Sequence record: PQ511146.1
Strand: one strand, 5' to 3'
Origin: Escherichia phage NHEP1
DNA: 64,000 bases
Shown: positions 86 through 61,043 of the stretch, one piece after another
Position numbering within the stretch: position 1 is the stretch's first letter
Layout: each line of letters begins with the position of its first letter
Position numbers and translations under genes: made by a program
Notes under the pieces: model-generated
Seen by the model: the letters and a program-made list of their open reading frames with translations, nothing else
What the model was told of the DNA's origin: nothing
The model's database searches: none

Positions 86-490
86 TTAATAAGTTTTCAG
101 TACTTTACCGTCCAACCTGTCAAGCTGGATCTCAATAGCTGCAGAAAACCTATTGTACACCACGTCGCCCATGGAATCCAACCAGTCTATGACGTTATAC
201 ACCTGCTCTTTGTTCTTGCAGGTCCGGATCCGTTTCATGATGTAAGCCGGATCAATATTGGTACTTTCGTTGGTGTTCCCCTGTACCTGATTTGCCGTAT
301 TAGTTACATCTTTAATGGCCTTTACCACCACCTGGAAGGGCTTTAAGGTGCCTTTTGCGTTCATCTCACGCACTTTTGCGGCGCGGTTGTTATAGGTTAC
401 ACAACGGCGGCAAATGTTCACTAAGTGCATGTCAATAATTTTTTCATCGTTTGCCAGTTCGTTCATGATGCGGCGTACGTTCTTATTCAT
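86..490 (-). CDS. hypothetical protein (134 aa)
   Basis: ATG with AAGGA SD about 8 nt upstream; no recognisable motif. Confidence 0.6.
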   Translation of the reverse strand: MNKNVRRIMNELANDEKIIDMHLVNICRRCVTYNNRAAKVREMNAKGTLKPFQVVVKAIKDVTNTANQVQGNTNESTNIDPAYIMKRIRTCKNKEQVYNVIDWLDSMGDVVYNRFSAAIEIQLDRLDGKVLKTY

Positions 491-510
491 GATCTTTTTC
501 CTTTGTGTTG

Positions 511-533
511 GCGGGAAACATTCCCGCCTTTTG
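511..533. promoter_or_regulatory. GC-rich hairpin GGCGGGAA-aca-TTCCCGCC in 5'UTR of gene 86..490
   Basis: 8-bp inverted repeat seen in sequence; followed by T-rich tract on plus strand. Confidence 0.3.
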
Positions 534-538
534 TGATT

Positions 539-566
539 AGTTTACTTGAATTTTGCAGCGTGTCAA
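539..566 (-). promoter_or_regulatory. sigma70-like promoter (TTGACA-16-TAAACT)
   Basis: -35 consensus hexamer with acceptable -10 upstream of gene 86..490. Confidence 0.3.
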
Positions 567-572
567 CAATTT

Positions 573-971
573 TTATTCGTGGGCGCATGTTACAATGTGC
601 TTTTTATAGCCCAGGTGGTTAGCAAGTGCCGACAAAAACTCTTCTTCATAGATCCAGCCGTTGGCAGTGATCCCCATAGCATTTAATGCGCTCTCAAGTG
701 CTGCATTAGCTTTATCGTAACCGTGACCGCTCGCCTTCCCGCCAGTATAACCGTACTTATTGTTCTTGTTGTCGTGAATCCAAAAAACACAGTATTGAGT
801 GTTCCCGCTGGCGGCGGCATAATACCGGATCTCAGCTACTTCGTGCAAATTATTGTCATCGTCCAGGCCCACCAGATTATAAGCCTTGTAAAATCCACGA
901 TCACGGCGGCAGTTCTTGACATCAGAAAAAGAAAAGTCCGCATTATCAAAATTAAAGGTAGTGGTTTTCAT
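573..971 (-). CDS. hypothetical protein (132 aa)
   Basis: ATG with AAGAGGA SD 7 nt upstream. Confidence 0.6.
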   Translation of the reverse strand: MKTTTFNFDNADFSFSDVKNCRRDRGFYKAYNLVGLDDDNNLHEVAEIRYYAAASGNTQYCVFWIHDNKNNKYGYTGGKASGHGYDKANAALESALNAMGITANGWIYEEEFLSALANHLGYKKHIVTCAHE

Positions 972-1003
972 GATTTTATCCTCTTAGTGTCTTTTGTGCT
1001 TTT

Positions 1004-1032
1004 AGTGTATTTGGTGTCAGAATGTATGTCAA
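1004..1032 (-). promoter_or_regulatory. sigma70-like promoter (TTGACA-17-TACACT)
   Basis: consensus -35 with weak -10 upstream of gene 573..971. Confidence 0.3.
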
Positions 1033-1035
1033 TAC

Positions 1036-1233
1036 TTATTTTTTATTAAACCAGTGGTTGATCTGGCCTTTTGTCAGGGCGCAACGATTAAGCTGTTGCC
1101 GGGTGTAGCTCTGACCGCGACGGAATTTATAAAGGCCTTGCCCGTTGTTGATGGTTACGTCCACCTGGCAAATCATTTGATCGGTGACGGCCTGGCGAGT
1201 GTTGCGACGTACTTTAATTCCGTAGGCGTTCAT
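1036..1233 (-). CDS. hypothetical small basic protein (65 aa)
   Basis: ATG with GAGAGGA SD; R/K/Q-rich. Confidence 0.55.
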   Translation of the reverse strand: MNAYGIKVRRNTRQAVTDQMICQVDVTINNGQGLYKFRRGQSYTRQQLNRCALTKGQINHWFNKK

Positions 1234-1285
1234 GATTTTTATCCTCTCTGTTAATTAGTGTGGTGTTGTTCACCTTGCGAGGATA

Positions 1286-1313
1286 AGAATAACAGAACTA
1301 TCCGAGCTGTCAA
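1286..1313 (-). promoter_or_regulatory. sigma70-like promoter (TTGACA-16-TATTCT)
   Basis: consensus -35 upstream of gene 1036..1233. Confidence 0.3.
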
Positions 1314-1633
1314 CCATTAGTTAGAATTATTTTTTGGGCAGAATTCTCCAGCCGCCGCCACTGCCAGGTTAACCATCATTTTTTCGTACTCTTCTTTATG
1401 TTCCAACGCTCCCGCCATAGCCTTTTCAACCAGGGCGATAGCCTCAGCGTCATTAATCGCTACATTTTCCAGGGGGGATCCTATTACCTTTCATTTTTGT
1501 ACCTCTTCTTCAGTTGTTGCCTACCCTGCATAGGCCCACCAGGTTTGCAAGCCTTCATTCTCCCCTACCTGGTCAGTTAGGTCCTGCCAGGCTGGCCCCG
1601 CCAGGTTGCAACGGTTAGCGCATCAGGTTAGAA

Positions 1634-1647
1634 TTTTTTTTTTTTTT
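1634..1647 (+). repeat. homopolymeric T14 tract
   Basis: 14 consecutive T seen in sequence, immediately upstream of a TTGACA hexamer (possible UP element). Confidence 0.9.
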
Positions 1648-1654
1648 GAAAGTG

Positions 1655-1683
1655 TTGACAGCGGCCCCGCCAGGTGGCACAAT
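1655..1683 (+). promoter_or_regulatory. candidate plus-strand promoter (TTGACA-17-CACAAT) with upstream T-tract
   Basis: consensus -35, weak -10; no downstream ORF, would drive a non-coding transcript. Confidence 0.3.
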
Positions 1684-1754
1684 ATACCTATCGAAAGGAC
1701 GGCAGGCACCGGTGACGGGGGAGACAACCACCGGGGATGGGCGCTGCATAAAAT

Positions 1755-1773
1755 GAGAACGGTTATCATTATC
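1755..1773. promoter_or_regulatory. Fur-box-like site (GATAATGATAACCGTTCTC on minus strand)
   Basis: 11/11 contiguous match to the left half of the E. coli Fur consensus GATAATGATAATCATTATC, 16/19 overall. Confidence 0.35.
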
Positions 1774-1890
1774 ATTTAAAAATTTATGCAAAAAATCCTT
1801 GCTCTCTTTGTCCTGTGTGATACTATAATAACAAGCCGGGGCAACAGGGGCCGGGAGACAATCACCGGGGGTGCCTGTTATTCTGCAAAC

Positions 1891-1907
1891 GAGAATGATT
1901 ATCATTC
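1891..1907. promoter_or_regulatory. Fur-box-like perfect palindrome GAGAATGATTATCATTC
   Basis: 7-bp inverted repeat GAATGAT/ATCATTC; 14/19 to Fur consensus. Confidence 0.35.
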
Positions 1908-2029
1908 AAAATTCTAAATGAGAACTTCTCGCATTTCATAAATTTAATTAGCATGCTAATTACCTACCGTGACAATTCTATATAAAATAATACCTCCTTA
2001 AGTATTTCCATATACAAATTTTAAAAATC

Positions 2030-2210
2030 CATTTCCGAAAACGAAAAATCGCTTTCGTTCCCAAAAATTTCAGGTCGAGCGCCGGAACGATTTCCAGAAA
2101 ATCTGATTCAGAAAACGAAAAACAGATCGAGTACTGAGAAATTTATCGAGAAAAATTTTCAGAAAATTCAATCTTTGAAATGAAAAACAGATCGAGTACT
2201 GAGAGAGATG
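2030..2210. repeat. A-tract rich array with 23-bp perfect direct repeat GAAAAACAGATCGAGTACTGAGA (2117-2139 and 2182-2204)
   Basis: direct repeats 65 bp apart plus repeated GAAAACGAAAAA motifs; iteron-like. Confidence 0.6.
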
Positions 2211-2512
2211 TGCCTAAACTTCCTGATAATGATGGGCTTATTGTTATAAAAGGCCAGAAGTAAGTTGGGAAAGTTCTGGTAGATGGGTGAGAGTGTGTGC
2301 GGAAAATCTGGAACGGTGATTTGAAGTACGGTGCGAATGATAGAATGAGTAGCGCAGCTTATCGTGCCTGTCTTGAAAAAATCCATTTTAGTTTTCGATC
2401 CATTTTCTGATTTTCTAAGAATTTTAAAATATCCGACTAGGTAAAATATCAAAAGGAGGAAATCTATTTTAGAAACCCTCCTTATACTTGATGTGCCAGG
2501 GATTTTCAAGTA

Positions 2513-2842
2513 TCAACTATCTTTGTTTTTAGGCTTGTACATGCGTAGAGGTATAGTTTTTATAACACTCCATCTCCCCAGCCCTTCCCAGTTCCAGTTG
2601 TGGGCATGGTACCCGGTTATGCATGCACTGCTGGCGTGATCATAAGCATAAGAGAACGCTATGCGTAACAAACGAGGCCAGTCTTTCCATGGTTGTGGTC
2701 CGTAAGCTTTTCTCCAACACCGACACAAACTAAATGTCTCAAGAATAGGCAGGATAACAAATCCATACACCGCCACCAGAATGGTCAGCGCAATGATTGT
2801 CAGGAATACATACCCTGCAGTTGAAATAATGATCTCTGTCAT
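2513..2842 (-). CDS. hypothetical membrane protein (109 aa)
   Basis: ATG with AGGGGA SD; hydrophobic N-terminal helix; ATGA overlap with upstream gene. Confidence 0.55.
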   Translation of the reverse strand: MTEIIISTAGYVFLTIIALTILVAVYGFVILPILETFSLCRCWRKAYGPQPWKDWPRLLRIAFSYAYDHASSACITGYHAHNWNWEGLGRWSVIKTIPLRMYKPKNKDS

Positions 2843-3036
2843 TTGTCATCCCCTTTCTTACGGATATAGATGTGAGAGCCTGCTTGTACATAAATTTCCC
2901 GACCATCTTCTGCAAAGATGTGGAATACACGGTCACCTTCGTATTCAATACGAGATATCTTCATAACGGTCTTCCCACCCGGAATGCGGATCTCATCGCC
3001 TACAGCAATGTTCCATGCAGATTTAAGCTTAAACAT
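2839..3036 (-). CDS. hypothetical protein (65 aa)
   Basis: ATG 6 nt after AAGGAGG; track start GTG at 3042 sits directly on the SD. Confidence 0.55.
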   Translation of the reverse strand: MFKLKSAWNIAVGDEIRIPGGKTVMKISRIEYEGDRVFHIFAEDGREIYVQAGSHIYIRKKGDDK

Positions 3037-3274
3037 CGTCACCCTCCTTTGGGAACTTGAACTCTGGCATAGCCATATACGCTACAACAGGGTTGTGATC
3101 AAAGTAGAACTGACCATTAATTATCCCAGTTTTTTGCACATAGTCACCAGATCCTGCAAGAACAACCTCGCAAGCTCCGAAATCTACATTGCCATTCTCG
3201 TCAGCCATGGCTACGATATACTTTCCGAGAGGCATGTTTTTAACGCCGTCTACAAATGTCCACCCTTTGTTCAT
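3029..3274 (-). CDS. hypothetical protein (81 aa)
   Basis: ATG with GGAGA SD. Confidence 0.6.
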   Translation of the reverse strand: MNKGWTFVDGVKNMPLGKYIVAMADENGNVDFGACEVVLAGSGDYVQKTGIINGQFYFDHNPVVAYMAMPEFKFPKEGDDV

Positions 3275-47045: not shown

Positions 47046-49118
47046 TTATGAGAAGTCTGGCGGAACAACATCTTCTACATACCCTTTCAGAGCAACCTGT
47101 CCCATATGCAGAACAGTAGAATCTCTGGCGGTAACAGTGATGCTGTCAGACATTACTTGCGGGTATGCCCACACATACTGTTTTACCTCAGGGTATCTAT
47201 ACTCTATGGTTGCCATGTTTCCGCAGATACATCTCCATAAAAATTCTTGGTAATTCCTGGTTGGGTCGTAGCCATATACCGGAGCAAGCTCTTTGCTAGG
47301 AACGAACCCTGCAAGGTATTGTATTTCAGACGGTTGCCAACCTAACTTAACGATAGGTATGTTTACAGACTCTTTTGCCTTTTCAATACCGCCCTGCATC
47401 ACCCAATCGTAGCACTCGGTGCAGAAGAAATCAAGAGCGCCTGCTTCCTTTTTATATTGGTCGGCAAGGTTCAGTTTTTGCGTAAGCTCGGTTTCCATAA
47501 TGGTCGGGAAAAACAGCAAAGCTGTCATCTGAGCCGATGCAGCATGTGCTTTTATTGCCTTTGAAATAGCTGCAATACGAGCTCCAAGCTTACCACGACA
47601 AAATGCTACATACTTGTCATAAACACCGCCAGTTTTAGGATCGTCAATAGTCCCAATGTCTAGTGCATATTCACCAGTCTCATCATAAAACGCCTGCTTT
47701 GTAGGGTAGTCATAAATACAAGGCTTACGAGTATCGGTATTGAACCACCACCACGGTTCACCAATCTGCATAATCACTGGCAGGTTGTTTCTCATAGCGG
47801 CTGATGCAAAATTCTTAAATACTGCAGTAAGGAAATTCATACCCTCTTCAATGGTTGGAGACAGGAGGTAACTACAAGGCGTATAGCCTGTTTTAGCATA
47901 GTTATCGTTCCAGTCTCTCTGGGTCCATTCCAACGGACAGGCATCGCTATAAAGCTCAAAGCTTACAGACTGCATAACGTCGAAGTCATGTCGTTTGGCA
48001 TTGTACATAAAATCATCATGCCATTTATAAGCTGCAGCGTTTAGAGCTCCTGTTTTGTTTATAGACCATTGGGTTCCTGACCATGTGTAGTCATAATAAT
48101 GGCTCATACCAACATAATGGTTTATGGTTCCTGTATAGCCCAGACGCTTGATATTACTCAACACCCTTAAAGGGGATACGTTCCACATATCGTCATATGC
48201 TGTGCAGATCCCAACATCGTGTTCTTTCACCTGAATATTGTTAAGTTGCATCATTTTCCAGCCTGTGTCCGGCTGAAGAAGATCTAGACGCAACTCACAC
48301 TCTACATTTTCCGTTCTCGGGTCTGTGCTATTACCTACCCAATCTTTAGGCATAAGTGGTATTAGAATCCTTCTCACCTGCCGGGGATCAACACCCATCA
48401 TGTTGTTGTTCTGGTCCATCCCGACGCAGTCCTCGAAATCAATATGAATTTCTGCAACATTCTTATCCTCTGAGATGCTGACAGCATATTGAGCTAAAGG
48501 AACATAGATGATTGTACCATCAACAAGGTCTACAGTCATAATCATCTTTTCAGGGGTGGAGAAGTTGCTGGCATTGGTTATTGACATTCTGAACCAAAGC
48601 TTGGTGTTTCTCATCTCGTAGTGATCATCAAATCCAATGCCGAAATGGTCATACTTGTCAACTGTTTCCCAAATGCACCCAGCCATGCCCCCATATGTTC
48701 TTGACACTAAACGATTAATACAGCAGTTATTATCCGCAACAATACAGGTGCTTTCAGTCTGCTGTGTGGTTGTAACCCAGTATCTTGGGTGAAACATTCT
48801 CTCCTCAACGGTATCCCAAGATATTCTGTCAAGATTTTCATCTGAAACTATTGTACATTTCGCTCTTTGTGTTCCAATCATAACCCCTTGGGAGTTTGAT
48901 GAAAACTCCATAAAGAAGCTCCTTGGCAACCTGTTTGGCAATTTGTCAACAATTTCTACAGGGATCTCGATACTGGTTGCCCCAACCGGGATAGTTACAT
49001 CGCCCTCAACATGATCATAATCCCTACCCGGAACTGCAGTATCCTGAACTGTGCGGTAATGAAACCGTGCAGCCATTGTAGAGTAATCACGGTAAGGTTT
49101 AAAAACAGCTGTTGCCAT
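47046..49118 (-). CDS. tail/baseplate-associated structural protein (690 aa)
   Basis: large ORF inside the structural operon; no diagnostic motif. Confidence 0.6.
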   Translation of the reverse strand: MATAVFKPYRDYSTMAARFHYRTVQDTAVPGRDYDHVEGDVTIPVGATSIEIPVEIVDKLPNRLPRSFFMEFSSNSQGVMIGTQRAKCTIVSDENLDRISWDTVEERMFHPRYWVTTTQQTESTCIVADNNCCINRLVSRTYGGMAGCIWETVDKYDHFGIGFDDHYEMRNTKLWFRMSITNASNFSTPEKMIMTVDLVDGTIIYVPLAQYAVSISEDKNVAEIHIDFEDCVGMDQNNNMMGVDPRQVRRILIPLMPKDWVGNSTDPRTENVECELRLDLLQPDTGWKMMQLNNIQVKEHDVGICTAYDDMWNVSPLRVLSNIKRLGYTGTINHYVGMSHYYDYTWSGTQWSINKTGALNAAAYKWHDDFMYNAKRHDFDVMQSVSFELYSDACPLEWTQRDWNDNYAKTGYTPCSYLLSPTIEEGMNFLTAVFKNFASAAMRNNLPVIMQIGEPWWWFNTDTRKPCIYDYPTKQAFYDETGEYALDIGTIDDPKTGGVYDKYVAFCRGKLGARIAAISKAIKAHAASAQMTALLFFPTIMETELTQKLNLADQYKKEAGALDFFCTECYDWVMQGGIEKAKESVNIPIVKLGWQPSEIQYLAGFVPSKELAPVYGYDPTRNYQEFLWRCICGNMATIEYRYPEVKQYVWAYPQVMSDSITVTARDSTVLHMGQVALKGYVEDVVPPDFS

Positions 49119-49815: not shown

Positions 49816-51306
49816 TTAAATAGTTTGTTGGAAAGTTATATTACTTTCGTCGAGGTCAAACACCTCGGTCATGTTTGCAACAATATCGTTTGTAGTGTAA
49901 GCTTCGTCAGAGGCTCCTACAGGTTTAACTTGAATTACCAATCTGTTAAATCTGCCTATCGACACAGCAGCGGATGCAGCACCTACCAATTGGATATTGT
50001 ACAACGTATCGGCGACATCCAAGCCGTTAACAACCTGTAAAAGAGCCTCTACAATGGCATCTTTTTCGGTTGTGGAAAGCGCAGCACCTGAGTAGGTAAT
50101 TCTTACATCTAGGCGGTAGGTATTTGCCTTGGAGTAATAAATCCTTTCAGTCTGACCGTCTGATGTGGTAATATCGTAGAAGATATTCCCATAAGTTCTG
50201 TTTGTGCAAGCTATGGTTTGATACAGTGCCTGACAGATATCCTCTGTTGCACCACCAAACACCACCACTTGAAACTTATAAGGTGGTATACCTTTCGCAT
50301 CCGTTTTATCGGTGTTGTTGGAGAACACTCTTACTTTCTCAACACCTTTCACCTCGCTTACAGCGCTAAGGATTGCAGGACGGGTAGCTTTAGATGTCAG
50401 CTGTTTAGTGCTGGAAGCTCTTAAGCGATACTCAGAGTCTTTCTCAACATCCCTACCCTCATTGAATCTTTCTCGGTTGGTAAGCTTGATAAATCCACTG
50501 GGAGTAGGTGACATTGTTGTCACGGTTTCTGCCTCTCTTGACAGCTCACCAGCCTCGTTAGCGATAACATCTAGGGTGATAGTTCTTTCCCCTACAATCG
50601 GGGATACTCTGAAATCTACCCTGCTATTAAGTCCAACTTGATCAAGATTCGAATTGTACCCTATCCACAACGTCCCTGTCAACATATCTATCTGAATTAG
50701 ATCATCATTCAGCAGGGTTGTATTATCGACAATGAATTGCTTAATCTCGCCGTAAAAGCTTGGCAAATCAGAAGAGTCCAGAGCCTTATCTGTTAAAACC
50801 AGACTTTTTGTTTTGATACTTCCGTCTGTCTGGTTGGTAATTTGAAAGTTGTATTTCCCAATTCTTAGGTCTGGAGCGTTTATTCTGTGAGCAATAAGAT
50901 TTCCCGCCACCTGCACATCGTTGCTAAGAACAAAGTTGCCACTGTCCAGCGTATAAGTTTTGGAATCATAAATCATATTGTACGGCACAGTTGTGTTGAT
51001 TGTCAACTGGCAGGTACCTGATGATTTAGAACGGCCTCTTCGGTAAATACCCTGTCTTCCAAGAAGCTCATCCAGGTAAATACCTTCTGCCCCATATAGC
51101 GTCTGTGATGCGTATACAGATGCTGCCATAAGAATAAGTTGATATTCTCGCTCGTTGAAAATAGTGGTCAGCTTATCTGCAACTGAGTTACTTTGTACGT
51201 TGAAGTTTTCGCCAAAAGCACGGATCAGGCTTTGCTTAGTTTCAACGATTAGGTCATTTAGGGTTGGTATAACGAAACCAGCCTCTGTCAATCCATACTT
51301 AGCCAC
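49816..51306 (-). CDS. structural protein, possibly baseplate J-like (496 aa)
   Basis: GTG 4 nt after GGAGGAG; first gene after internal promoter; tentative family call. Confidence 0.5.
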   Translation of the reverse strand: MAKYGLTEAGFVIPTLNDLIVETKQSLIRAFGENFNVQSNSVADKLTTIFNEREYQLILMAASVYASQTLYGAEGIYLDELLGRQGIYRRGRSKSSGTCQLTINTTVPYNMIYDSKTYTLDSGNFVLSNDVQVAGNLIAHRINAPDLRIGKYNFQITNQTDGSIKTKSLVLTDKALDSSDLPSFYGEIKQFIVDNTTLLNDDLIQIDMLTGTLWIGYNSNLDQVGLNSRVDFRVSPIVGERTITLDVIANEAGELSREAETVTTMSPTPSGFIKLTNRERFNEGRDVEKDSEYRLRASSTKQLTSKATRPAILSAVSEVKGVEKVRVFSNNTDKTDAKGIPPYKFQVVVFGGATEDICQALYQTIACTNRTYGNIFYDITTSDGQTERIYYSKANTYRLDVRITYSGAALSTTEKDAIVEALLQVVNGLDVADTLYNIQLVGAASAAVSIGRFNRLVIQVKPVGASDEAYTTNDIVANMTEVFDLDESNITFQQTI

Positions 51307-51339
51307 GTCACTCCTCCGGTATGAAAATCTCTACAAGGT

Positions 51340-51368
51340 ATTTTACCAAATTTTGTAACAATAGTCAA
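51340..51368 (-). promoter_or_regulatory. sigma70-like promoter (TTGACT-17-TAAAAT) inside the structural module
   Basis: hexamers between terminator 51376..51404 and gene start 51306. Confidence 0.55.
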
Positions 51369-51375
51369 TCTGAGC

Positions 51376-51404
51376 ATAAAAATAAACCCCGCCGAAGCGG
51401 GGCT
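51376..51404 (-). terminator. rho-independent terminator (CCCCGC-UUCG-GCGGGG + U-run)
   Basis: same hairpin as at 25240 and 57198; follows the J-like gene. Confidence 0.6.
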
Positions 51405-51411
51405 TTAAAGG

Positions 51412-54400
51412 TTAGTCGTGAGACTCGTTCCAAGGTCCCTGGAAGCTTGAGTTAGAACGACTAACGATCACAGTGGGACAGGAGATTGTGACACCTGTCA
51501 CGCTAGACGTTGACCACGGTGTGTAAATCTCGATAACAATGTCTATAGTTTGTTCACCCAGACCTGTTATCCCTACCGCACACATGCCGTTGTTGTCGTT
51601 AAAATACTTCTTGCCAGCAAGGATCTGATGACCAGCTATCCATGCATTCAGCTGGGAGCTGGCAAGAGTACCATTCAGTTTAAAGAAGAATGTTACGTTC
51701 TTACCCTGACCTGAAACGTTATCTACGTATCTCCACCTCCAACGGCAAACCCTTTGCCGGGAGTTGTATACTGGAGCACAATCTCCGTAAGTCCTGTGTG
51801 CAACAATCGCACCTTCGAACTGGTTAGCACGGATAACGGAAGCTTCTACACGTCCACGGAATGTACCTCCTGTTGCATCTATGGTTCCTCTAAAGCTACC
51901 GTTGTTGGCATAAACATCCCCACGGAAGGTGCCACTGGTAGCGTTAACTGCCCCTGTGAAGTTACCTGCACTAGCGTTGATGTTACCTTTCACCCACACA
52001 TCCATAAACTGGGCGTGCCCGTTCTTGTTAATATACCAACCGTATTTGTGGTACCCGTTGCCATCGTAGTTGTTTGACGAAATTTCTTGCGCGATCTTGG
52101 CAGAAGAGATCGTGCCGTTCTCTATAAAAGCGTCTTTCAAGAACGCTTGGTTGTTCTTGATTGCGAAAGCAAGGGTTGCTGTTCCATTGCCTGGGTTGTA
52201 TACCGCAAAGTTGTTTGCGCTAACCATGAAATATGACTGAACTTGGCCTCCAGAGCCTTCCATGCCTAACTGGATACCTGCCACATACTTATTCCCTGCG
52301 GAGTCTACCTGTATTTTTGTGCCCCATTGAGCATTTACTTTGCCCTCTAAGTCGGTCACAGCCTTAGATGTTGTAGCCACTGCAGCTCTGAGTTCGGTCA
52401 CATCTCCAACATCATCAATAATCTCCTGCTTAGCAACAGCAAGTTCTTGACGAATAGCTGACGCTGTGCCATTAATAAGGTCAACAGTAGACTTATTAGT
52501 TTCAGAAATATTCGCAGACAATTCTTTCTTAGTCTGAGTCAGCTTATTATCCAACCCGTTAATGTTATTGGTGTTGGTTGTAATCTGCCCTTTAGCAGTG
52601 GTTAACTGCTCAGTCAAAGCTGCCGTTTTCTGATTCAATAGGTCAGTTGTGGCCTTGTTGGTGGTAGAAATCAACGTATTAAGATCAGACTTGGCGGTGT
52701 TTATCTTACCATCAAGCGTGGTGTAGTTTTTGGACACTGTGGCGTTGGTCTGGCTAATCTTCTGGTCAAGAGTCTCAGAAGTTCTGTTCAGCAAGTCCAC
52801 AGTGGCCTGGTTAGTGCTCAGAATGCTCGCATCCAACTCAGATCTTTGAGTATTCAACTTGCCCTCTAGGCTCTTATCACCAGCCAGATAGCCTTTTTCA
52901 ACATCTCCGATCTGCTCAGTCAACTCTCCCTGTGCAGCAACCAGTTTTTCATCCAACGCCTCTGTTTTCTTATTAAGAAGATCAGTGGTGGATTTGTTGG
53001 TTGACTCAATCAAGGATGATAGTTTAGCACTCTCATTTTGCAGGTTGTTGGTCAACTCACCTTTCGTTGCTGTCAGCTTGTTATCTAAAGCCTCAGTTTT
53101 CCGATTAAGGAGATCTGTAGTCGTTTTATTGGTTGAAACAATTAGAGAGTTCAGCTCAGAGCTTTCCTGTGCCAAAGCATCTTCCAATTCACCCCTTGTT
53201 GAAACAATCTTCTCGTCCAAAGCTTCAGTTTTCTGATTTAACAGATCGGTTGTAGCTTTGTTAGTGGTCTGTATTAGAGAAGTCAGCTTACCACTTTCTT
53301 TAGAAAGATCATCTGCAAACTTGTTCTGAGTGGCTACCAGTTTCTGGTCTAGAGTGGTAAGCGTTCCATTAACGTCCTGGAAGTTGTCGTGGGTTTCTTG
53401 GATGAATATTCCAACCCTATTCCCCAACTGAGCATACAGCTTGTCTACTCTAGAGAACTCACCTTCCATGTGGTCAAAAGCCTCGTCAACTCTACCATCC
53501 ATGTACCTGTTAAGTTCTGTGACACGATTTTCAACCTCTTCAATAGAGGAATCTAAAGTGCTCATCAACTCTTTATAAGTTTCTGTCTTTTTAAATTCAG
53601 CATCTATCTGAGGCATCAAATCTTCAATAGAGGTGTAGCAGCGTGCAGCGCATTCTATAAACTGAGAACTACCAAAAGCGTTTGTGGTTCGAATATACCA
53701 ATAATAGATCTTATCGTTCTGCAGACCTTCAGATGTCCAAGTTGAACCAACACCCATACGAGTGGCTTTTGAAGTAACGGTTGCATCACTTGTGTCTGGC
53801 AACCTTGTCATACCAGATGTCCAAAAGTCATACTGGGTGCTTACACTTGCTAAGTCCCTGCTGTGCGGAATCAAGGTGATAGCAAAGTATCCCTGCTTAA
53901 CTTCTACAGAAACCGGAGCTTCAGGTGCCTGAATGTTAAACTCGCAGTACGCTTCTGGAGATACACCACCTTTATAAGATGTTGCAACCACGGTTGCTGT
54001 GTATGACCCTTTGGTCAATCCTTCTACACGGACAAACTGCTCTACTGTTTGTGCTGTCCAAATAATTTCTCCGTTCTTTCTTACCTGCACAATATTTTGA
54101 GCATAAGTTCCAACGTTGTCCCAAGCCAAAACACCATGAGTTACTTCCCCAGCTTGAAGAACAGAGTATCTGAAGTTTTGCGGTTGAGCTACGCCGGACG
54201 GGGATATCGGAATATCCACATCGCCAGAATCCGGAAGTTGCCCTGTGGCATCATTCCACTCTTTAGCATCTTGACGGAGTTTTACCTTGACACCGCCCTT
54301 TTTGGTGAACTCCCACTCAAGAACCCTCATTTCTTGGCCCACTATACCAATACTTGGAAGGTCCATCGTAACGTAACGCCCAGGCTTAAATTTAAAACCC

Positions 54401-55557
54401 CGCATATTGCAGGTTACTTCAATAATCCTACCAGCTCTGGCACGTCTTAAGAAGATTGCAGAAACACGCTGAGCTTGATAAGGACTGGTAACAAAGCGAT
54501 AATCTATATCGATTATCTTTCTTTCTCCATCCTTCTCTATCCACTCTGGGACAAACACTGATGGAAAATCTGTTTCAGAATATCCTTTAGCCGGACTAGT
54601 GAATCTGCCAGTTATTGTGTTGGATCTTTTGTCGAAGGAGGCTTCAGGATAGATCTTAACCTCACCGCAAACACAGTCCTCACTCAGTGTCATTGTTGCC
54701 GGGCCATAGTATGCACCTACCAGCAGACCATATTTGCCAGCTACATAGCTAAGGTCTGCACCACAAGCTTTCAGCATCTCTGCCATAATGCTTGCTGGTG
54801 CTTCATCCATGTCGAACTCGCCATTAATGGTGTAACGGCGCTCACTGGTTCCGTCCGCGTTTTTTACAGCCTCGTCGCATATGTTGGCAGCTTCCTTGAA
54901 GGACTCCCAGTTGATGGTTTCGTCAGGACATTTAAGGTACGTTCTTAGATAGTCCAGAATCACCAAGGCAGCGTTGTTGGTATACACCTCTTTACTGATA
55001 CGAGGATCATAACATTTTTTACCAACCTTGACGAGTGTAACGTTTGGCAACCCAAAAGGAAACTTGTTAGGGTCAAACTTAAAGCTGGCACGTAGCCAAC
55101 TGATCCCTCTACCTATCATGTCTGGTGACCACGAAGGGCAGTGTGTGCCCATGAAAGGATCAGAGGTTTTCCTGTCGTTATGCAACTCCCACGATACCAA
55201 ATCCCCATACGAGGAAATAGGATTACCGTCGATAAGTATATCTTCTATACCTTCCAAGGGATGATTGGCAAGAACAATAGCACAATGAAGGGTTCTGTCC
55301 CTGTCCTGCTCTAAAAACGCAAGCAATCCAGATGTGCGTGTCTTCCCATATACTACAGAGCAAGGTGCAGCAGAAGATCTGAGAAGTTTTTGTCTATCTT
55401 GTTGACTTCTGTAAGATTTGTTGCCTTCGAAAATCTTATCAAGGGTTCTGGTGGTAACAGTGTTCAGGCTGTCAGCCAGAGCTGCCTTGGATGCGTTCCA
55501 GTCATAGCTCGAAGATCTTGCAGAAGCAACGATGTTATCAATCATTGCAATTGGCAT
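51412..55557 (-). CDS. lambda J-like tail tip / host-specificity protein (1381 aa)
   Basis: segments APEAPVSVEVKQGYFAITLIPH, DFWTS, YYWYIRTTNAFGSSQFIE parallel lambda gpJ as recalled from memory; GGAGG SD; internal coiled-coil repeat array. Confidence 0.65.
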   Translation of the reverse strand: MPIAMIDNIVASARSSSYDWNASKAALADSLNTVTTRTLDKIFEGNKSYRSQQDRQKLLRSSAAPCSVVYGKTRTSGLLAFLEQDRDRTLHCAIVLANHPLEGIEDILIDGNPISSYGDLVSWELHNDRKTSDPFMGTHCPSWSPDMIGRGISWLRASFKFDPNKFPFGLPNVTLVKVGKKCYDPRISKEVYTNNAALVILDYLRTYLKCPDETINWESFKEAANICDEAVKNADGTSERRYTINGEFDMDEAPASIMAEMLKACGADLSYVAGKYGLLVGAYYGPATMTLSEDCVCGEVKIYPEASFDKRSNTITGRFTSPAKGYSETDFPSVFVPEWIEKDGERKIIDIDYRFVTSPYQAQRVSAIFLRRARAGRIIEVTCNMRGFKFKPGRYVTMDLPSIGIVGQEMRVLEWEFTKKGGVKVKLRQDAKEWNDATGQLPDSGDVDIPISPSGVAQPQNFRYSVLQAGEVTHGVLAWDNVGTYAQNIVQVRKNGEIIWTAQTVEQFVRVEGLTKGSYTATVVATSYKGGVSPEAYCEFNIQAPEAPVSVEVKQGYFAITLIPHSRDLASVSTQYDFWTSGMTRLPDTSDATVTSKATRMGVGSTWTSEGLQNDKIYYWYIRTTNAFGSSQFIECAARCYTSIEDLMPQIDAEFKKTETYKELMSTLDSSIEEVENRVTELNRYMDGRVDEAFDHMEGEFSRVDKLYAQLGNRVGIFIQETHDNFQDVNGTLTTLDQKLVATQNKFADDLSKESGKLTSLIQTTNKATTDLLNQKTEALDEKIVSTRGELEDALAQESSELNSLIVSTNKTTTDLLNRKTEALDNKLTATKGELTNNLQNESAKLSSLIESTNKSTTDLLNKKTEALDEKLVAAQGELTEQIGDVEKGYLAGDKSLEGKLNTQRSELDASILSTNQATVDLLNRTSETLDQKISQTNATVSKNYTTLDGKINTAKSDLNTLISTTNKATTDLLNQKTAALTEQLTTAKGQITTNTNNINGLDNKLTQTKKELSANISETNKSTVDLINGTASAIRQELAVAKQEIIDDVGDVTELRAAVATTSKAVTDLEGKVNAQWGTKIQVDSAGNKYVAGIQLGMEGSGGQVQSYFMVSANNFAVYNPGNGTATLAFAIKNNQAFLKDAFIENGTISSAKIAQEISSNNYDGNGYHKYGWYINKNGHAQFMDVWVKGNINASAGNFTGAVNATSGTFRGDVYANNGSFRGTIDATGGTFRGRVEASVIRANQFEGAIVAHRTYGDCAPVYNSRQRVCRWRWRYVDNVSGQGKNVTFFFKLNGTLASSQLNAWIAGHQILAGKKYFNDNNGMCAVGITGLGEQTIDIVIEIYTPWSTSSVTGVTISCPTVIVSRSNSSFQGPWNESHD
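52400..53300 (-). repeat. intragenic tandem repeats encoding about 33-aa coiled-coil units (S.L.SLI..TNK.TTDLLN.KTEALD.KL)
   Basis: at least six repeat units in the translated J-like protein; bounds approximate. Confidence 0.5.
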
Positions 55558-55982
55558 TAATACCTCCAGACATCAACAACGATAGAATCTTTCATGTCGA
55601 ACATAAAGATCCCTTTATCACCTTTCGCCCAAATCTGGTTGTTCCAGAACACACCAGCGGTGAGCCCGTTCAGACCTTCGAAAATAACAATATCACCACG
55701 CTGAACCTGTTTAGGAGTATCCAGTCGAGTCAAAAAGAGATCAAAAATAGTAGGCAGATGTGTGGTTTTGAAACGAAGCATGCACCATCTCTTGCTTTCC
55801 AACTCTGTTTTATACGTTCCTTCAAAGTTAGAAAGAAAATCTGTTCCGTATTGGGCATCAACACACTTAGCCGCAAAAGTGCAGCAATCGTGGAATCCCC
55901 ATTCAAACGGGATGGTGGCTTCTTCGTCAAACACTTTCCACAATCTTTCTTGCCAGTCCACTAAACGAGGGTGTGTGCTCAT
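55557..55982 (-). CDS. tail tip-associated protein (141 aa)
   Basis: ATG 4 nt after GGGAGG (track TTG at 55994); FHDCC segment, peptidase assignment not supportable. Confidence 0.5.
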   Translation of the reverse strand: MSTHPRLVDWQERLWKVFDEEATIPFEWGFHDCCTFAAKCVDAQYGTDFLSNFEGTYKTELESKRWCMLRFKTTHLPTIFDLFLTRLDTPKQVQRGDIVIFEGLNGLTAGVFWNNQIWAKGDKGIFMFDMKDSIVVDVWRY

Positions 55983-56533
55983 TAAACCTCCCAAATGATC
56001 GGGCGGCTTGCCACCTGATCCACATATTTAAAAAATCTGTCATTATCGTTTCTTGAGCTATGGCTCTCCTCTGTGTACCGATAAGGAAAACCTCTTAACC
56101 AGCTGTTGAAGATGGAAGATATGGATATGGACAAAGCACTATTCTCCCCTGTCTGAATAGCCATGTCTGTTATAAGGCCGTCAAACAAGCCATTGGTTGT
56201 AACAGGTAAACCATTCTCCATAGCTGTGATATACAACGTGGCACGACAACCCGAATACTCCGTCTTCAGCAGATCACCTACATACTTGGGATCAAACCCG
56301 TTCAATGTTGCTACCACAGATCCGAAGTTGGTGGCATCTTTCTCAGACACAGCAGTCAATGTTGCTGATCCACCTATCCCTATAAAATGTTGCCCCTCAA
56401 TCACCACAACACCAGTTCCTGAGCACACCCTGACAGTCCCTGTTGGTAGCTCTAGCTTTGCAGCAATTAAGATCTCAACACTATCAAGCTCCAGCTTTTC
56501 AAGAAATAAATTATCTAATGGCGCTCTAATCAT
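55982..56533 (-). CDS. tail tip-associated protein (183 aa)
   Basis: ATG 8 nt after GAGGA (track TTG at 56548). Confidence 0.5.
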   Translation of the reverse strand: MIRAPLDNLFLEKLELDSVEILIAAKLELPTGTVRVCSGTGVVVIEGQHFIGIGGSATLTAVSEKDATNFGSVVATLNGFDPKYVGDLLKTEYSGCRATLYITAMENGLPVTTNGLFDGLITDMAIQTGENSALSISISSIFNSWLRGFPYRYTEESHSSRNDNDRFFKYVDQVASRPIIWEV

Positions 56534-56534
56534 C

Positions 56535-57125
56535 TTAGAAATCCTCAAAGAAGTTGATAACTATATTATCACCTTTTTGCATAGCATCGACTTTTTGCTT
56601 AATTTTATAAATATCTCTGATATGAAACCTACCCTTTGGGGATTGAGTTATTATCTTCATAGTGTCCCCTGCGGCAATAGGTTTTCTAAGTCTTGGAGAT
56701 ATGCTTATAACAGCAGACCCAACACCATCGCTGCGCACTGGAGCTGTTACCACTTTCAATTCATCGTTAACAGATATTTTATCCCCAGCTCTGGCTATGT
56801 CTCTGTTTGGCTCCCATCCGACCGTCTTCAAAAAATCGTCGTTACCAGTAGGCCCAAGGGCGATTGGCTCATTAGCTGTTACTGAGTGACCGTACGTTTT
56901 AATAAGAAAAATGTTCCCATCTTTATACACCTGATCAACAAAGCTCTTAAGCTCTAGCAGTTGTGACTCGCTGATATTGGAAACCGTCAAAGTGCCTTTC
57001 CAGTTAGGTGTGGCATAGGTCACTTTTTGCGTTTTACCTGTAAACGGACTTTTAAACGTAACAATATCTGCCAGCAGCTCCAATCTGATGTCTGGAAGGT
57101 ATCTAGGCCTTTCCCATAAAAACAT
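56535..57125 (-). CDS. tail tip-associated protein (196 aa)
   Basis: ATG 4 nt after GGAGG; first gene after terminator 57187..57217. Confidence 0.55.
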   Translation of the reverse strand: MFLWERPRYLPDIRLELLADIVTFKSPFTGKTQKVTYATPNWKGTLTVSNISESQLLELKSFVDQVYKDGNIFLIKTYGHSVTANEPIALGPTGNDDFLKTVGWEPNRDIARAGDKISVNDELKVVTAPVRSDGVGSAVISISPRLRKPIAAGDTMKIITQSPKGRFHIRDIYKIKQKVDAMQKGDNIVINFFEDF

Positions 57126-57186
57126 TGTGCCTCCAGGTTAAACAATCATGATAGTTATTTTACCAGATTTTGAGTTAATACGCAAT

Positions 57187-57217
57187 ACAAACAAAAAGCC
57201 CCCGCCGAAGCGAGGGC
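57187..57217 (-). terminator. rho-independent terminator (GCCCUCGC-UUCG-GCGGGGGC + U-run)
   Basis: hairpin and UUUUUGUUUG on minus strand after the 1272-aa fibre gene. Confidence 0.6.
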
Positions 57218-57224
57218 AAAACAG

Positions 57225-60200
57225 TTACTTCAGTTTCTCTTGCAGCCCAGTAACAACCTCTGTCAATTTTTTAACCTGTTCCTCAAGGGCGGTTATTTTA
57301 TCATCCTGTTCCCTACAAACTTGGACAAGCAAGCCTGTCACAGCTGCGTAATCCACGCTGTAGAATCTTTCCTCTGTTATCAAAGGAGTTCCATCTTGCG
57401 TGGGATCAGGAGCCTCTTTCCTTTGCACGAAAGATCCAACCGCTTCAGGTAATGCTTCCATAACCTCTTGAGCAATTACCCCTGCGTAAGGCATACCATT
57501 CTCTTTTAAAGTGTAGGTATAGCCATTCATCTTCCGGATAGCTTCTAACGCGTTAGGAATAACTTCTATGTTATCCTTCAGGTCGCGGTCAGAGTTTTGG
57601 TTCACGGATACACAGTTTACTGCACCGTTTACAGAAAGATATCTTGATTTATCCGGCAAGGTACCACAATGCCATACCCAATTTGCTTGAGAATCGTCAA
57701 GAACCTTAAACTCCAACACGTTTGGACGATTTCCTGTGCTGCCGTTGCCCCAATAGTGCATATGAGCGCTATTCGCAGGCATGTTGCCACCGTTATTAGT
57801 GACATGGCTTCCAGAAATATATACCTTTAACTCTGGGGTCGGTATTTCCCCTTCTGGGGTTGTTCCTCCATACCTGAAGCTAACACCGTTACCGCCTGTT
57901 TGGGTCCACGGTCCCCAAGTAAAGACCTGCTTCACCATATTCCCATAACGTATAAATCTATCGCCGTGATAGGTAATATACTCTTGAACACACCCATTAC
58001 CGTTATTGGCGTTATTTTGTAACACAATGAGTGTCCCGGCCTCATTTACGGGATAATGACGATCATTTGTTGCATCATTATTTGCAGGCTGATGGTAAAT
58101 ACCCTCCCACAATCCGTGATAGGTATTAAGGTCTGAAGTACCAAGGCCTTGACCCCTGTGCTGCATGGCCTTATTCCAGGGGTGATGATTACCACCTTCT
58201 ATAGACCTGGTGTATAAGTTACTTTGTCTGCCAGCAATCTGGAAAGCGTAGTTTCCTGAGAATCCTACAGATAAGCCACCTACAACCATGGTGTCTTGTG
58301 GACCGTTAACATTACCAGCTATTATTTTTGACGGGTTGTTAGGCCCGAACTGGTTGTTCCAGTCTGCACCAGTATGACATACAAAACCACCAGGAGCTGA
58401 GAAAGTACCGTCCTTGTTGAAGTTGTAGAATCTATGAGCTGTGCCTACCACATCACGAACAATAACTTGACCAGCCTCTGGGGTGGATCTGAACTCTGCC
58501 TGTCCTTGCAGTCTTGCACCATTACCACATTTAGAGGTAAAGGTGTTGTTGATCAGATCCTCTGTTCCTTCCGATGCAGCTTGGAACCCTGCGTTAGAGA
58601 ACAGTGCTTTCCTGGTGGTTTGGCTACCTGGACAAATGTAGTTAAGACCATTATACCACATCTCTACAGGAGGCATCTCTGTCTTACTCATCAGAACCAT
58701 TCTGTCAGGTGTGCCTATATAGTGCCAGCCTGCGCCACCCCCAGTATAGAACCCTGATGTTCCCTTGAACTCAGCAAGAGGTCTGGTGTTTGTTACATCA
58801 TCACCTTTAATTGCAAGACTTAAATTATCTGATGCAAGAGGGGCGCAAAACTTGACACCATCTTGGTTGTTAGTTACATTCCCTACCTGCCAGTCATTTT
58901 CTCTGGTAAATACCTCAAGAACGTTTCTGCTTGCGTAGATACTAACAGGGAAAGCACGCGCCTCAACATAGAATGCAACATACTCCTGCTTTCCTCTGGT
59001 TGGAGCTATGCACCCAAGAATTGCTTTCTCGTTTTGGTAGAAATTAATAACACCTTGGAAAGAATCCCCCCTATCCGTCCAGCCACCAGTTCTGTAGTGA
59101 CACTGCAAGGTAGCACAGTTCATAGGGTCATTTCCAGATGAAGATCTGGTGACTATAGTAATATCCGTACCTGTCGAAGGGGCGTAATACGGATCTGTTC
59201 TAACGATGATTGGGTAGTATTTCCCATCTTCCATCCCTGCGGTTCTTGGCAGTGTTAAGAAATCTTTTACACCTGCTGCTACAGGAACTCTAAACATATT
59301 CTGAGCTTCTGCCAGAGTTGTAACCCCAGTACCACCTGCTGCCTGAGGTAAAGGTTCCCACTTGGCCTTCCGGTTGTTATAAACACCCCATTCCAGAGTA
59401 CCATTACCGGATTCATCCATCCCTCCATCCCAGATTACCATTTTTGCGGCTTTCTTGGATCCCCAGAACCCTCTTTCTGCTCCTGAACTACGGATCCATT
59501 CTCCGAGTCCCCAGTTTGTCAGCTGACCAGTAAGATCCCCAACCTGCATGTATTTAGGACAGTCTAATACGCCGTCTTCGCGGAAACCTAAATATCTATG
59601 GGTTTCAGATCCTTTTGCACCTTTGTGTAGGTGGATTGTTAACCACGCCTTATTGTCGTTTCTTACCTCGGAATAGATCCTATACCCATGCTCAAGGACA
59701 CCGTCAGCACTGTATTTGTCCCCGTGAACAATGCCAGATGCCGACTTGACATCAGCAGAGCTTTGAGACAGGTAAAGGTGCCCGAAGGTAGGAGAATTCC
59801 TAGACCCAAGACCTATGTGCGATCTAAAGGTCTCATCGTTACGAGGTCTGACCATCGGCTGCCATGCAGTCCACTGGTTTGTGTTGGCCTGATAAGTTCT
59901 CAAATACCAAACATCTACGTTAGAGAATGGGTAGTATTCCTGACGACAGCCTGTGCCGCCGTTAGCATTGTTCTGCCAAACAATTAGGTGACCCGCACCA
60001 GAACCTGCAGGGTAACCATTTGCCTCAGTTGCATTAGCAGTCATCGGCTGGTAGTATACACCATCCTGATTACCAGTCAAGTTATTGATATTGAAATTTG
60101 CCTCAAGGGCTGCACGTTGCTTATAGAAAGCCCCTAAGTTAATGCGTGCACCTGCGGCATCTTTGGCCCCTGTACCACCCTGCTCTATAGCAAGAGGTTG

Positions 60201-61043
60201 CCACGAAGCTGTTTGTTGGTTCCACATACCCCAACGGCCTGTTGCATCAAGCTGCAAGTACCCTGCCGTGTTTAAATCATCTCCGGCACGGATAACTGTT
60301 CTTGTTGGGTTGTTTGCCTCCAGGCGTTTAAATTCGTCACGAAGTGCTATTCTTTTTGTTGTTGCTACACCGTTGGTTACTGCAATGGTATACATGGCTC
60401 CAGAGGTAGCGCCACGGAAAATGCCATCAACAGTTGTAGTATCACGACGAGATACCACACCGTTCAGAAATTTTTCACCAGCTGCTTCAGAAGGGTAGTT
60501 AGTAGTTCTTCCCTCTTCAATAACTGCAGGACCAACAAAGTTGACAAGGTGAATAACATCACCTACAGTATGCACTGTACCAAAATCTACCCGCTGTGCA
60601 AGTGCTTTAGCATCGTTGGCTGTCTGAACAGTAACATCCATTACATCCTGGACAGACTGCCCTTCGGCTGTCATGATCATAGATGCGCCAATGGTAGATT
60701 CTAGCTCCTCCCTTAGGGACGGGTCAGTATATACCATCCACGCAGCGTCAGTAATCCCACCGTCAGAATATGGTGAAGACAGTGCAGGGACAGTGTGTGG
60801 AAATTCGCCTTTCCAACGCAGGTATAGATCTTCCTCTTCGAAGTAGGCAAAATCCATTGGGCCGTTTAACTTACCACCTTCCTTAAAGGAGATTACATGA
60901 GAAACAGTCCCATCCACATGGACAACATCGCCAATTTTTACACGACGGGTCAGGTCTGGTTGTTGAACAACCAGGTAATCATCCTCTGTCACTGCGGTAG
61001 TGGCAGGAAGAGATTCAATTCTGACAACTTTAATATCAGCCAT
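57225..61043 (-). CDS. long tail fibre with C-terminal intramolecular chaperone (peptidase S74-like) domain
   Basis: C-terminal ...NSDRDLKDNIEVIPNALEAIRKMNGYTYTLK...AGVIAQEV...PEAV signature (about 57228-57650); AGGAGA SD. Confidence 0.7.
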   Translation of the reverse strand: MADIKVVRIESLPATTAVTEDDYLVVQQPDLTRRVKIGDVVHVDGTVSHVISFKEGGKLNGPMDFAYFEEEDLYLRWKGEFPHTVPALSSPYSDGGITDAAWMVYTDPSLREELESTIGASMIMTAEGQSVQDVMDVTVQTANDAKALAQRVDFGTVHTVGDVIHLVNFVGPAVIEEGRTTNYPSEAAGEKFLNGVVSRRDTTTVDGIFRGATSGAMYTIAVTNGVATTKRIALRDEFKRLEANNPTRTVIRAGDDLNTAGYLQLDATGRWGMWNQQTASWQPLAIEQGGTGAKDAAGARINLGAFYKQRAALEANFNINNLTGNQDGVYYQPMTANATEANGYPAGSGAGHLIVWQNNANGGTGCRQEYYPFSNVDVWYLRTYQANTNQWTAWQPMVRPRNDETFRSHIGLGSRNSPTFGHLYLSQSSADVKSASGIVHGDKYSADGVLEHGYRIYSEVRNDNKAWLTIHLHKGAKGSETHRYLGFREDGVLDCPKYMQVGDLTGQLTNWGLGEWIRSSGAERGFWGSKKAAKMVIWDGGMDESGNGTLEWGVYNNRKAKWEPLPQAAGGTGVTTLAEAQNMFRVPVAAGVKDFLTLPRTAGMEDGKYYPIIVRTDPYYAPSTGTDITIVTRSSSGNDPMNCATLQCHYRTGGWTDRGDSFQGVINFYQNEKAILGCIAPTRGKQEYVAFYVEARAFPVSIYASRNVLEVFTRENDWQVGNVTNNQDGVKFCAPLASDNLSLAIKGDDVTNTRPLAEFKGTSGFYTGGGAGWHYIGTPDRMVLMSKTEMPPVEMWYNGLNYICPGSQTTRKALFSNAGFQAASEGTEDLINNTFTSKCGNGARLQGQAEFRSTPEAGQVIVRDVVGTAHRFYNFNKDGTFSAPGGFVCHTGADWNNQFGPNNPSKIIAGNVNGPQDTMVVGGLSVGFSGNYAFQIAGRQSNLYTRSIEGGNHHPWNKAMQHRGQGLGTSDLNTYHGLWEGIYHQPANNDATNDRHYPVNEAGTLIVLQNNANNGNGCVQEYITYHGDRFIRYGNMVKQVFTWGPWTQTGGNGVSFRYGGTTPEGEIPTPELKVYISGSHVTNNGGNMPANSAHMHYWGNGSTGNRPNVLEFKVLDDSQANWVWHCGTLPDKSRYLSVNGAVNCVSVNQNSDRDLKDNIEVIPNALEAIRKMNGYTYTLKENGMPYAGVIAQEVMEALPEAVGSFVQRKEAPDPTQDGTPLITEERFYSVDYAAVTGLLVQVCREQDDKITALEEQVKKLTEVVTGLQEKLK

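Follow-up and report, generated by a model that had tools for sequence, protein, structure and literature searches.

The question raised by the fibre locus of Escherichia phage NHEP1 is what has lengthened its J-type fibre protein, and what the added length may do for the phage. The window analyzed here is a stretch of 64,000 nucleotides (nt) of sequence record PQ511146.1, and the gene is an uninterrupted open reading frame (ORF) on its minus strand. The encoded protein of 1381 amino acids (aa) exceeds lambda J (1132 aa) by 249 aa. The source genome is that of a Vequintavirus, an rV5-like contractile-tailed phage, and the protein is the ortholog of rV5 gp37, a 1279-aa protein found in virions by mass spectrometry (PMC3606486). 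An earlier note on this DNA, written from its letters alone, had proposed a lambda J-like protein about 250 aa longer than its namesake, which it held to carry an inserted array of at least six 33-aa units forming a long coiled coil.

The protein does contain six diverged copies of one unit, as a repeat at the level of protein only. The anchor xTNKxTTDLLN occurs six times (at aa 764, 808, 852, 914, 965 and 1019), with spacings of 44, 44, 62, 51 and 54 aa. The period is 44 aa through units 1-3 and 51-62 aa from unit 3 to unit 6, linkers of 18, 7 and 10 aa parting the last three units, and the conserved core measures ~33-36 aa. The 36-aa cores have a mean pairwise identity of 0.48, as against 0.092 +/- 0.013 in composition-preserving shuffles (z = 30.7), and eight columns of the 44-aa unit alignment are invariant (L6, I10, T13, N14, T17, D19, L20 and N22). 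Comparison of aa 651-1070 with itself gives a signal at offset 44 only. The count of six in the earlier note therefore stands, and its period of 33 aa is rejected: ~33 aa is the length of the conserved core.

Among units 1-3, identity is 61-66% at the protein level and 62-64% in DNA (the latter being the maximum over the units); protein identity in the pairs outside this group is 27-55%. Tandem Repeats Finder, run on positions 51000-56000, reported no array because the units are too diverged in DNA. This blank result, the ceiling of 62-64% on DNA identity and a length that is fixed within each allele class are the grounds on which a slippage-prone DNA contingency array was rejected. The unit is not a shared domain either. 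A profile of it, searched against 1.84 billion representative proteins, found the Vequintavirus protein in two allele forms and one unrelated coiled-coil protein (E 3e-4), the latter a spurious match; the unit arose within the Vequintavirus lineage. Between units 3 and 4 lies a Gly-rich linker, DVEKGYLAGDKS (52870-52905, minus strand; aa 885-896), which is the main predicted break of a long helix.

The predicted helix takes in the whole array. The sequence of aa 651-1100 is free of proline and rich in polar and aliphatic residues, and in the hydrophobicity spectrum of aa 645-1075 the highest power, 250, stands at a period of 3.64 residues (shuffled maximum, 53 +/- 12). Units 1-3 on their own peak at 3.68; the N- and C-terminal regions of the protein have no peak near 3.64 in the same spectrum. 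At 3.50 the power is only 5.2 as against 250 at 3.64, and a canonical heptad coiled coil was rejected on that account. A period of 3.64-3.68 combined with a unit of 44 aa (4 x 11) points instead to hendecad-type packing of a helical bundle. The coiled coil of the earlier note is retained, on indirect support, in so far as the segment is predicted to be helical and is proline-free and periodic; its packing is probably of the hendecad rather than the heptad type. AlphaFold2 (a single-sequence monomer run on aa 631-1381) models aa 632-1078 as a helix interrupted by three short breaks, among them one at Gly-rich aa 892-896 and one at aa 1051-1052, at low confidence (mean predicted local distance difference test score, pLDDT, 47.7; 55-73 in the repeats). 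Sub-threshold Pfam matches (Apolipoprotein, 2.9e-7; Spectrin_7; Fib_alpha) agree with the composition of a generic helical bundle, as does a weak match to the P22 tail needle.

The setting of this helix within the protein bears on its origin. The protein belongs to the lambda gpJ family, as the earlier note had supposed: it matches PHROG 31 ('central tail fiber J') over aa 143-1237 (E 9e-161), carries Pfam domains of the family, and has lambda J (8iyk) as its best solved relative, with a similarity that is significant and segmental (E 8.6e-28). Residues 497-680 align with J 666-846, and residues 1061-1217 with J 846-990. The two aligned blocks thus meet at J residue 846, yet they lie 380 residues apart in the NHEP1 protein. 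In lambda J, residues ~809-861 form an alpha-helical shaft of ~53 aa between FNIII-2 and the beta-prism (PMC11101478). The break in the alignment falls inside that shaft, which argues that the ~434-aa region of the NHEP1 protein is the homologous shaft, enlarged to about eight times the lambda length. By this alignment the array is an enlargement of an existing shaft, and not a foreign insertion.

Outside the shaft, NHEP1 and lambda gpJ (8iyk, 8xci) share the domain order hub, two FNIII, helical shaft, beta-prism and distal domain, and their sequences are significantly similar in the FNIII and beta-prism parts. The first Ig/FNIII-like domain is a weak match to Ig_J (PF24421; E 4.7e-5, under the curated cut-off) and the second a strong one to Ig_J_second (PF24489; E 3.4e-30, over the cut-off). 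Beyond the shaft there is a full-length match to Phage_Tail_Tip (PF09327; E 6.9e-39); lambda J 846-990 aligns there, and on that basis the domain would be equivalent to the lambda central straight fibre (beta-prism). The N-terminal part is ~170 aa shorter than that of lambda gpJ; its aa 245-472 match the T5 baseplate hub pb3 (8hqz; E 8.3e-5), so that a hub is predicted by sequence. The C-terminal domains of the two proteins are unrelated. The lambda alignment stops near aa 1217 without reaching a lambda-type C-terminal receptor-binding domain, a Pfam search gave no match beyond aa 1199, and a PDB search with the C-terminal 161 aa (aa 1221-1381) gave none that was significant. The C-terminal domain varies within the lambda gpJ family; among Vequintavirus alleles aa 1221-1381 are 95-99% identical.

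The gene is widely distributed in the genus. Its nearest deposited copy is that of Escherichia phage vB_EcoM-ECP32 (97.6% nt identity), and about 100 other Vequintavirus records, rV5 included, have 90-95% DNA identity to it. In all, 116 phage records match it; of the 60 that were sampled, 58 have it at near full length (the other two are split or cut by the end of the record). The rV5 protein is annotated 'COG4733 tail component', and other Vequintavirus orthologs 'central tail fiber J', 'tip attachment protein J' or 'lateral tail fiber protein with fibronectin type III domain'. (The gene is also present, at 90-95% identity, in eighteen records labelled 'Campylobacter phage', MG0656xx, with Campylobacter jejuni as the stated host; these host labels look doubtful.) rV5 gp37 and its Vequintavirus orthologs resemble the NHEP1 protein in locus and in their non-shaft regions (93-99% protein identity). 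They differ in the shaft, where rV5 gp37 has four units and NHEP1 six.

Comparison across isolates, a check proposed in the earlier note, establishes that the repeat region is not invariant. In the phage collection the span of the gene is 4146, 3840, 3600 or 3525 bp according to class, and the unit profile counts six units in the NHEP1 protein (1381 aa), four in the rV5/HMD-6 type (1279 aa), three in the JeffSchatz type (1199 aa) and two in O157 typing phage 14 (1174 aa). Most relatives have the four units of rV5, and ECP32 has six; the protein collection holds 120 proteins with four units and 13 full-length ones with six. Twelve phage records have the 6-unit shaft, at one and the same length, and the 90% cluster of the 6-unit form contains no other unit number. 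Hypervariability within the 6-unit allele was rejected because these twelve records and all full-length cluster members are equal in length. Two shorter members of the cluster (1199 and 1139 aa) retain six units, their lost length lying outside the array, and are most likely truncated or frameshifted calls. Several 6-unit records (A147, A135, A142, A141 and A13b) span 4145 bp, one base under the NHEP1 gene, and the 1139-aa product (cluster member P0134) was called from contigs of this type; the short span and the short product suggest a frameshift or a homopolymer sequencing error.

Differences in unit number are in register with the unit. Relative to the 6-unit protein, the 4-unit form is short of exactly 88 aa (2 x 44), with the junction in the core, between TTNKA and TTDLLN; it also lacks 14 aa further upstream. 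Its first unit resembles the N-terminal half of NHEP1 unit 1 joined to the C-terminal half of unit 3, and this hybrid look suggests that an ancestor resembling the 6-unit form gave rise to the 4-unit allele by deletion. A single clean deletion of 315 nt separates the 2-unit gene from the 4-unit gene of HMD-6; its ends lie in two unit cores sharing GTGGATCTT. In the flanks of its junction, the 2-unit gene has 99.4% identity to its 4-unit counterparts in phages C2, PDX and WalterGehring. Gain and loss of units by recombination is a fair reading of these junctions. The earlier note's picture of recombinational expansion and contraction is to that extent borne out, by the existence of 6-, 4-, 3- and 2-unit forms joined in register. 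What it did not foresee is that length is fixed in each class: the variation consists of a few old, discrete alleles, and not of a freely slipping array. No description of the 44-aa unit or of its copy-number alleles was found in the searchable literature.

The age of these alleles is recorded in their synonymous sites. Protein identity among Vequintavirus alleles is 93-99% in the flanks and 46-86% in the shaft. Between NHEP1 and the 4-unit allele, synonymous divergence (dS) rises from 0.17-0.28 in the flanks (the wider range for flanks being 0.17-0.38) to 1.8-2.7 in the shaft (a value that alignment of paralogous units could inflate), and the ratio of nonsynonymous to synonymous divergence (dN/dS) is 0.04-0.09. 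Identity at third codon positions is ~0.3-0.45 over about aa 691-1020, though some stretches are 90% identical in protein; in aa 841-960 protein identity between alleles reaches ~90% with synonymous sites saturated. Positive selection on the shaft was rejected (dN/dS 0.04-0.18). Taken together, saturated shaft dS, low dN/dS and near-identical flanks are the mark of a segment that diverged long ago, has been held by purifying selection and would move between genomes as a cassette by recombination in the conserved flanks; they are not the mark of fast adaptive change.

Long shafts have been described in other J-type proteins, and the shaft of NHEP1 is not, as the earlier note had thought, unusual for the family. 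The central fibre PyoF10/BHP1 of the F2 pyocin (PDB 25vf) is a J homologue with an 'exceptionally long' shaft that has been solved as a three-stranded coiled coil (PMC13455828, August 2026); its residues 982-1184 align with aa 966-1180 of the NHEP1 protein (E 1e-17), and it is without the 44-aa unit, of which the profile found nothing outside Vequintavirus. In the BASEL fibre atlas (PMC12143355), the 'tail needle' fibres TC3, TC4 and TC9 have a T5-hub-like N-terminus, a coiled coil 'of varying lengths' and a beta-helical C-terminus, and among the members of TC5 is a Vequintavirinae fibre whose coiled coil is large and whose N-terminus is like that of a central fibre. The latter resembles the NHEP1 protein and may be its exact ortholog; the atlas makes no mention of the 44-aa unit or of differences in unit number.

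What might such a shaft be for? We consider it probable that the J-type Vequintavirus fibre carries a modular helical shaft that serves as a spacer and sets the reach of the fibre, with units gained and lost by recombination. From N- to C-terminus, the fibre would consist of hub-like domains, two Ig/FNIII domains, a very long helical shaft, the beta-prism 'tail tip' domain and a C-terminal end domain. Most of its extra length would come from the six diverged 44-residue units, each equivalent to four 11-residue turns of register. To judge from its homologues in lambda J and the F2 pyocin, the shaft most probably forms one straight, extended, three-stranded helical bundle, which would set the distance of the distal binding end from the particle and could in that way influence host range. 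With a rise of 0.1485 nm per residue, a unit would lengthen the shaft by about 6.5 nm, and shaft lengths of ~64, ~49, ~37 and ~34 nm are predicted for the alleles with 6, 4, 3 and 2 units, respectively. Units would be gained or lost through recombination between the conserved cores of different units, and whole shaft cassettes would be swapped between phages by homologous recombination in the conserved flanks. In electron micrographs of rV5, thin fibres of ~70 nm are occasionally visible (PMC3606486); a shaft of ~49 nm together with beta-prism and end domain would be on the order of that length.

Several observations weigh against a simple spacer. The AlphaFold2 monomer model, with its low mean score, cannot separate a straight trimeric bundle from a fold-back, and the Gly-rich segment at aa 892-896 is predicted to break the helix. 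The unit number, for all its differences among alleles, gives a length that is constant within each allele class, and the sole recent contraction, that of O157 typing phage 14, comes from one 'partial genome' record (KP869112) and is possibly an assembly error. In phage V18 (KY683736) the gene appears to be without ~1 kb, amounting to the whole shaft (aa ~641-987 of the 4-unit form). This V18 ortholog (positions 301-3044 of its record) is also split into two ORFs by a frameshift; it is either a natural knock-out, in which case growth in the laboratory would not require the fibre, or a product of faulty assembly. The amino acids of the units are very strongly conserved despite saturation of synonymous sites, which is not obviously needed in a mere spacer. 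Finally, the phage has contractile-tail hub and spike genes of its own, as annotated in HMD-6, which leave no obvious place for a J-type hub.

The conservation of the units and the break between them could also be accounted for if the units were mainly docking sites, for other fibre proteins or for a host surface polymer, their number being the number of attachment sites. There is precedent in the F2 pyocin, whose J homologue has a glycine kink in its helical shaft to which three side-fibre trimers are docked (PMC13455828). The Gly-rich linker of NHEP1 recalls this kink; the F2-pyocin shaft differs in bearing an insertion domain along with its docked side fibres, whereas the NHEP1 shaft is known from its sequence, with the break of aa 892-896 as a prediction. 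The invariant polar residues of the unit (T13, N14, T17, D19 and N22) speak for docking, as does the close similarity of aa 841-960 between synonymously saturated alleles, and Vequintaviruses encode about nine fibre proteins, with gene-to-fibre assignment unclear (PMC8594841) and the order of assembly unknown (PMC8594841, PMC12143355). On the other side, the conserved Thr and Asn residues lie on or beside the core stripe of period 3.67, where a structural role would suffice to explain them, and the number of units ranges from 2 to 6. Docking as the main function of the units is in our judgment unlikely.

A helical region that folds back on itself, in antiparallel bundles of the spectrin or apolipoprotein type, would make a compact knob or elbow and hardly affect the length of the fibre. 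The sub-threshold Apolipoprotein and Spectrin_7 matches and the predicted helix breaks at aa 892-896 and 1051-1052 are what one would expect of it, and the 11-residue periodicity of apolipoproteins is common to the shaft. The Pfam scores, on the other hand, are far under the family cut-offs. Moreover, in lambda J and the F2-pyocin protein the homologous shaft consists of three parallel helices bundled about a three-fold axis, every J-type protein of solved structure has trimeric domains on either side of it, and the BASEL atlas models the J-type Vequintavirinae fibre as elongated, with a large coiled coil (PMC12143355). We regard the fold-back as very improbable, and an extended shaft as the better reading of the helix.

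The remaining features of the locus are collected in the table together with those of the J-type gene.

Table. Features of the J-type gene of phage NHEP1 and of its module (positions in the window; gp, gene product; CDS, coding sequence).
Feature	Position	Strand	Basis or remark
J-type fibre protein CDS	51412..55557	-	ORF, 1381 aa; PHROG 31; ECP32 identity
N-terminal hub-like region, aa 1-490	54088..55557	-	PHROG 31 and 5616 coverage; pb3 and 9g matches
First Ig/FNIII-like domain, aa 493-545	53923..54081	-	Pfam Ig_J PF24421; lambda J FNIII alignment
Second Ig/FNIII-like domain, aa 547-652	53602..53919	-	Pfam Ig_J_second PF24489; lambda J alignment
Alpha-helical shaft, aa 645-1078, 434 aa	52324..53625	-	no proline; hydrophobic period; AlphaFold2; lambda alignment
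Six-unit array, aa 753-1051	52405..53301	-	motif, unit profile and alignment; coordinates checked by translation
Unit 1, aa 753-796	53170..53301	-	alignment; unit profile E 6e-21
Unit 2, aa 797-840	53038..53169	-	within the 88 aa missing from the 4-unit allele
Unit 3, aa 841-884	52906..53037	-	followed by 18-aa linker with Gly-rich predicted helix break
Unit 4, aa 903-946	52720..52851	-	unit profile and alignment
Unit 5, aa 954-997	52567..52698	-	unit profile and alignment
Unit 6, aa 1008-1051	52405..52536	-	most diverged copy
Phage_Tail_Tip / DUF1983 domain, aa 1059-1199	51961..52383	-	PF09327
C-terminal region, aa 1200-1381, presumed receptor-binding end	51415..51960	-	
Terminator-like hairpin directly after the J-type stop codon	51384..51405	-	consensus scan
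DUF6950 gene, 145 aa	55557..55994	-	45% identical to 9g gp67
Tail protein gene (phrog_2048), 188 aa	55982..56548	-	40% identical to 9g gp66
Distal-tail-protein-like gene (phrog_1302), 196 aa	56535..57125	-	31% identical to 9g gp65
Terminator-like hairpin just upstream of the four-gene module	57198..57217	-	consensus scan

Three genes with overlapping ends lie directly upstream of the J-type gene and form with it a four-gene module (51384-57217, minus strand) that is collinear with gp65-68 of siphovirus 9g (Queuovirinae), at identities of 31, 40, 45 and 52%. 9g gp68 is the closest non-Vequintavirus relative found: it is 52% identical over aa 48-712, which includes the hub-like region, and 39% identical over the C-terminal third. 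It measures 1029 aa, of which the shaft takes up only ~110, and the unit is absent from it. The three genes that precede it (gp65-67: Dit-like, tail-protein and DUF6950) stand in the NHEP1 order. The 9g module follows the tape-measure gene of a non-contractile tail, unlike that of NHEP1, where the gene upstream of the module encodes a 1272-aa fibre and no tape-measure gene and no homologue of lambda gpI or gpK was recognized beside the J-type gene. In NHEP1 a complete siphovirus-type tail-tip module (Dit-like, tail protein, DUF6950, J-type) is embedded in the baseplate and fibre cluster of a contractile phage; the neighbours match the annotated rV5-type baseplate and fibre locus (Baseplate_J, a 690-aa TIM-barrel fibre and a 1272-aa Peptidase_S74 fibre). 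Typically, lambda gpJ-type proteins are trimers that close the end of a non-contractile tail tube. Because the NHEP1 genome is that of a contractile-tailed Vequintavirus, the label 'tail tip' is an assumption taken over from siphoviruses. No J-type component is described in the phi92 and phiTE structure papers.

That the module is a dispensable siphovirus tail-tip remnant of horizontal transfer and its repeat differences neutral indels, as its homology and collinearity with 9g, the terminator-like hairpins on both of its sides, the seemingly disrupted V18 copy and cryo-electron microscopy of two Vequintaviruses (which placed only three other fibres and did not locate the J-type one; PMC12143355) might suggest, is most unlikely in view of a dN/dS of 0.01-0.09 over the whole gene including the shaft, the near full-length retention of the gene across so many records, the presence of the rV5 ortholog in virions, and indels that are every one in frame and in register.

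Of the two large fibres encoded near the module, the 1272-aa protein (57225-61043, minus strand) carries a Tail_spike_N domain at its N-terminus and the intramolecular chaperone Peptidase_S74 at its C-terminus; it is the ortholog of rV5 gp41, and its gene ends at a strong terminator-like hairpin. The 690-aa protein (47046-49118, minus strand) has Calx-beta, NCTSP_N and 'non-contractile tail sheath TIM barrel' domains, as well as a GMSHY motif. A 2026 preprint reportedly connects GMSHY, in Vequintavirus and N4-like phages, with binding of the N4 glycan receptor.

A more far-reaching proposal would have Vequintaviruses bear a full siphovirus-type tail-tip module (Dit-like, hub partner, DUF6950 and J) as an extra appendage of the contractile baseplate, in which the 44-residue units set reach or the number of docking sites, and cassettes of two to six units are kept by selection arising from the differing depth of host surface layers. 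We offer it as a speculation that is doubtful as a whole.

The protein, its family and the existence of long J-family shafts were already known from databases and the literature; the 44-residue unit private to this lineage, the small set of 6-, 4-, 3- and 2-unit alleles and the shaft cassettes far older than their flanks are a modest addition to that knowledge. The allele series allows the reach of a fibre to be tested in adsorption through O-antigen or capsule layers, and the unit junctions point to safe sites for the engineering of fibre length. The more interesting question is the role that a siphovirus-type hub-and-fibre module plays on a contractile-tailed phage.

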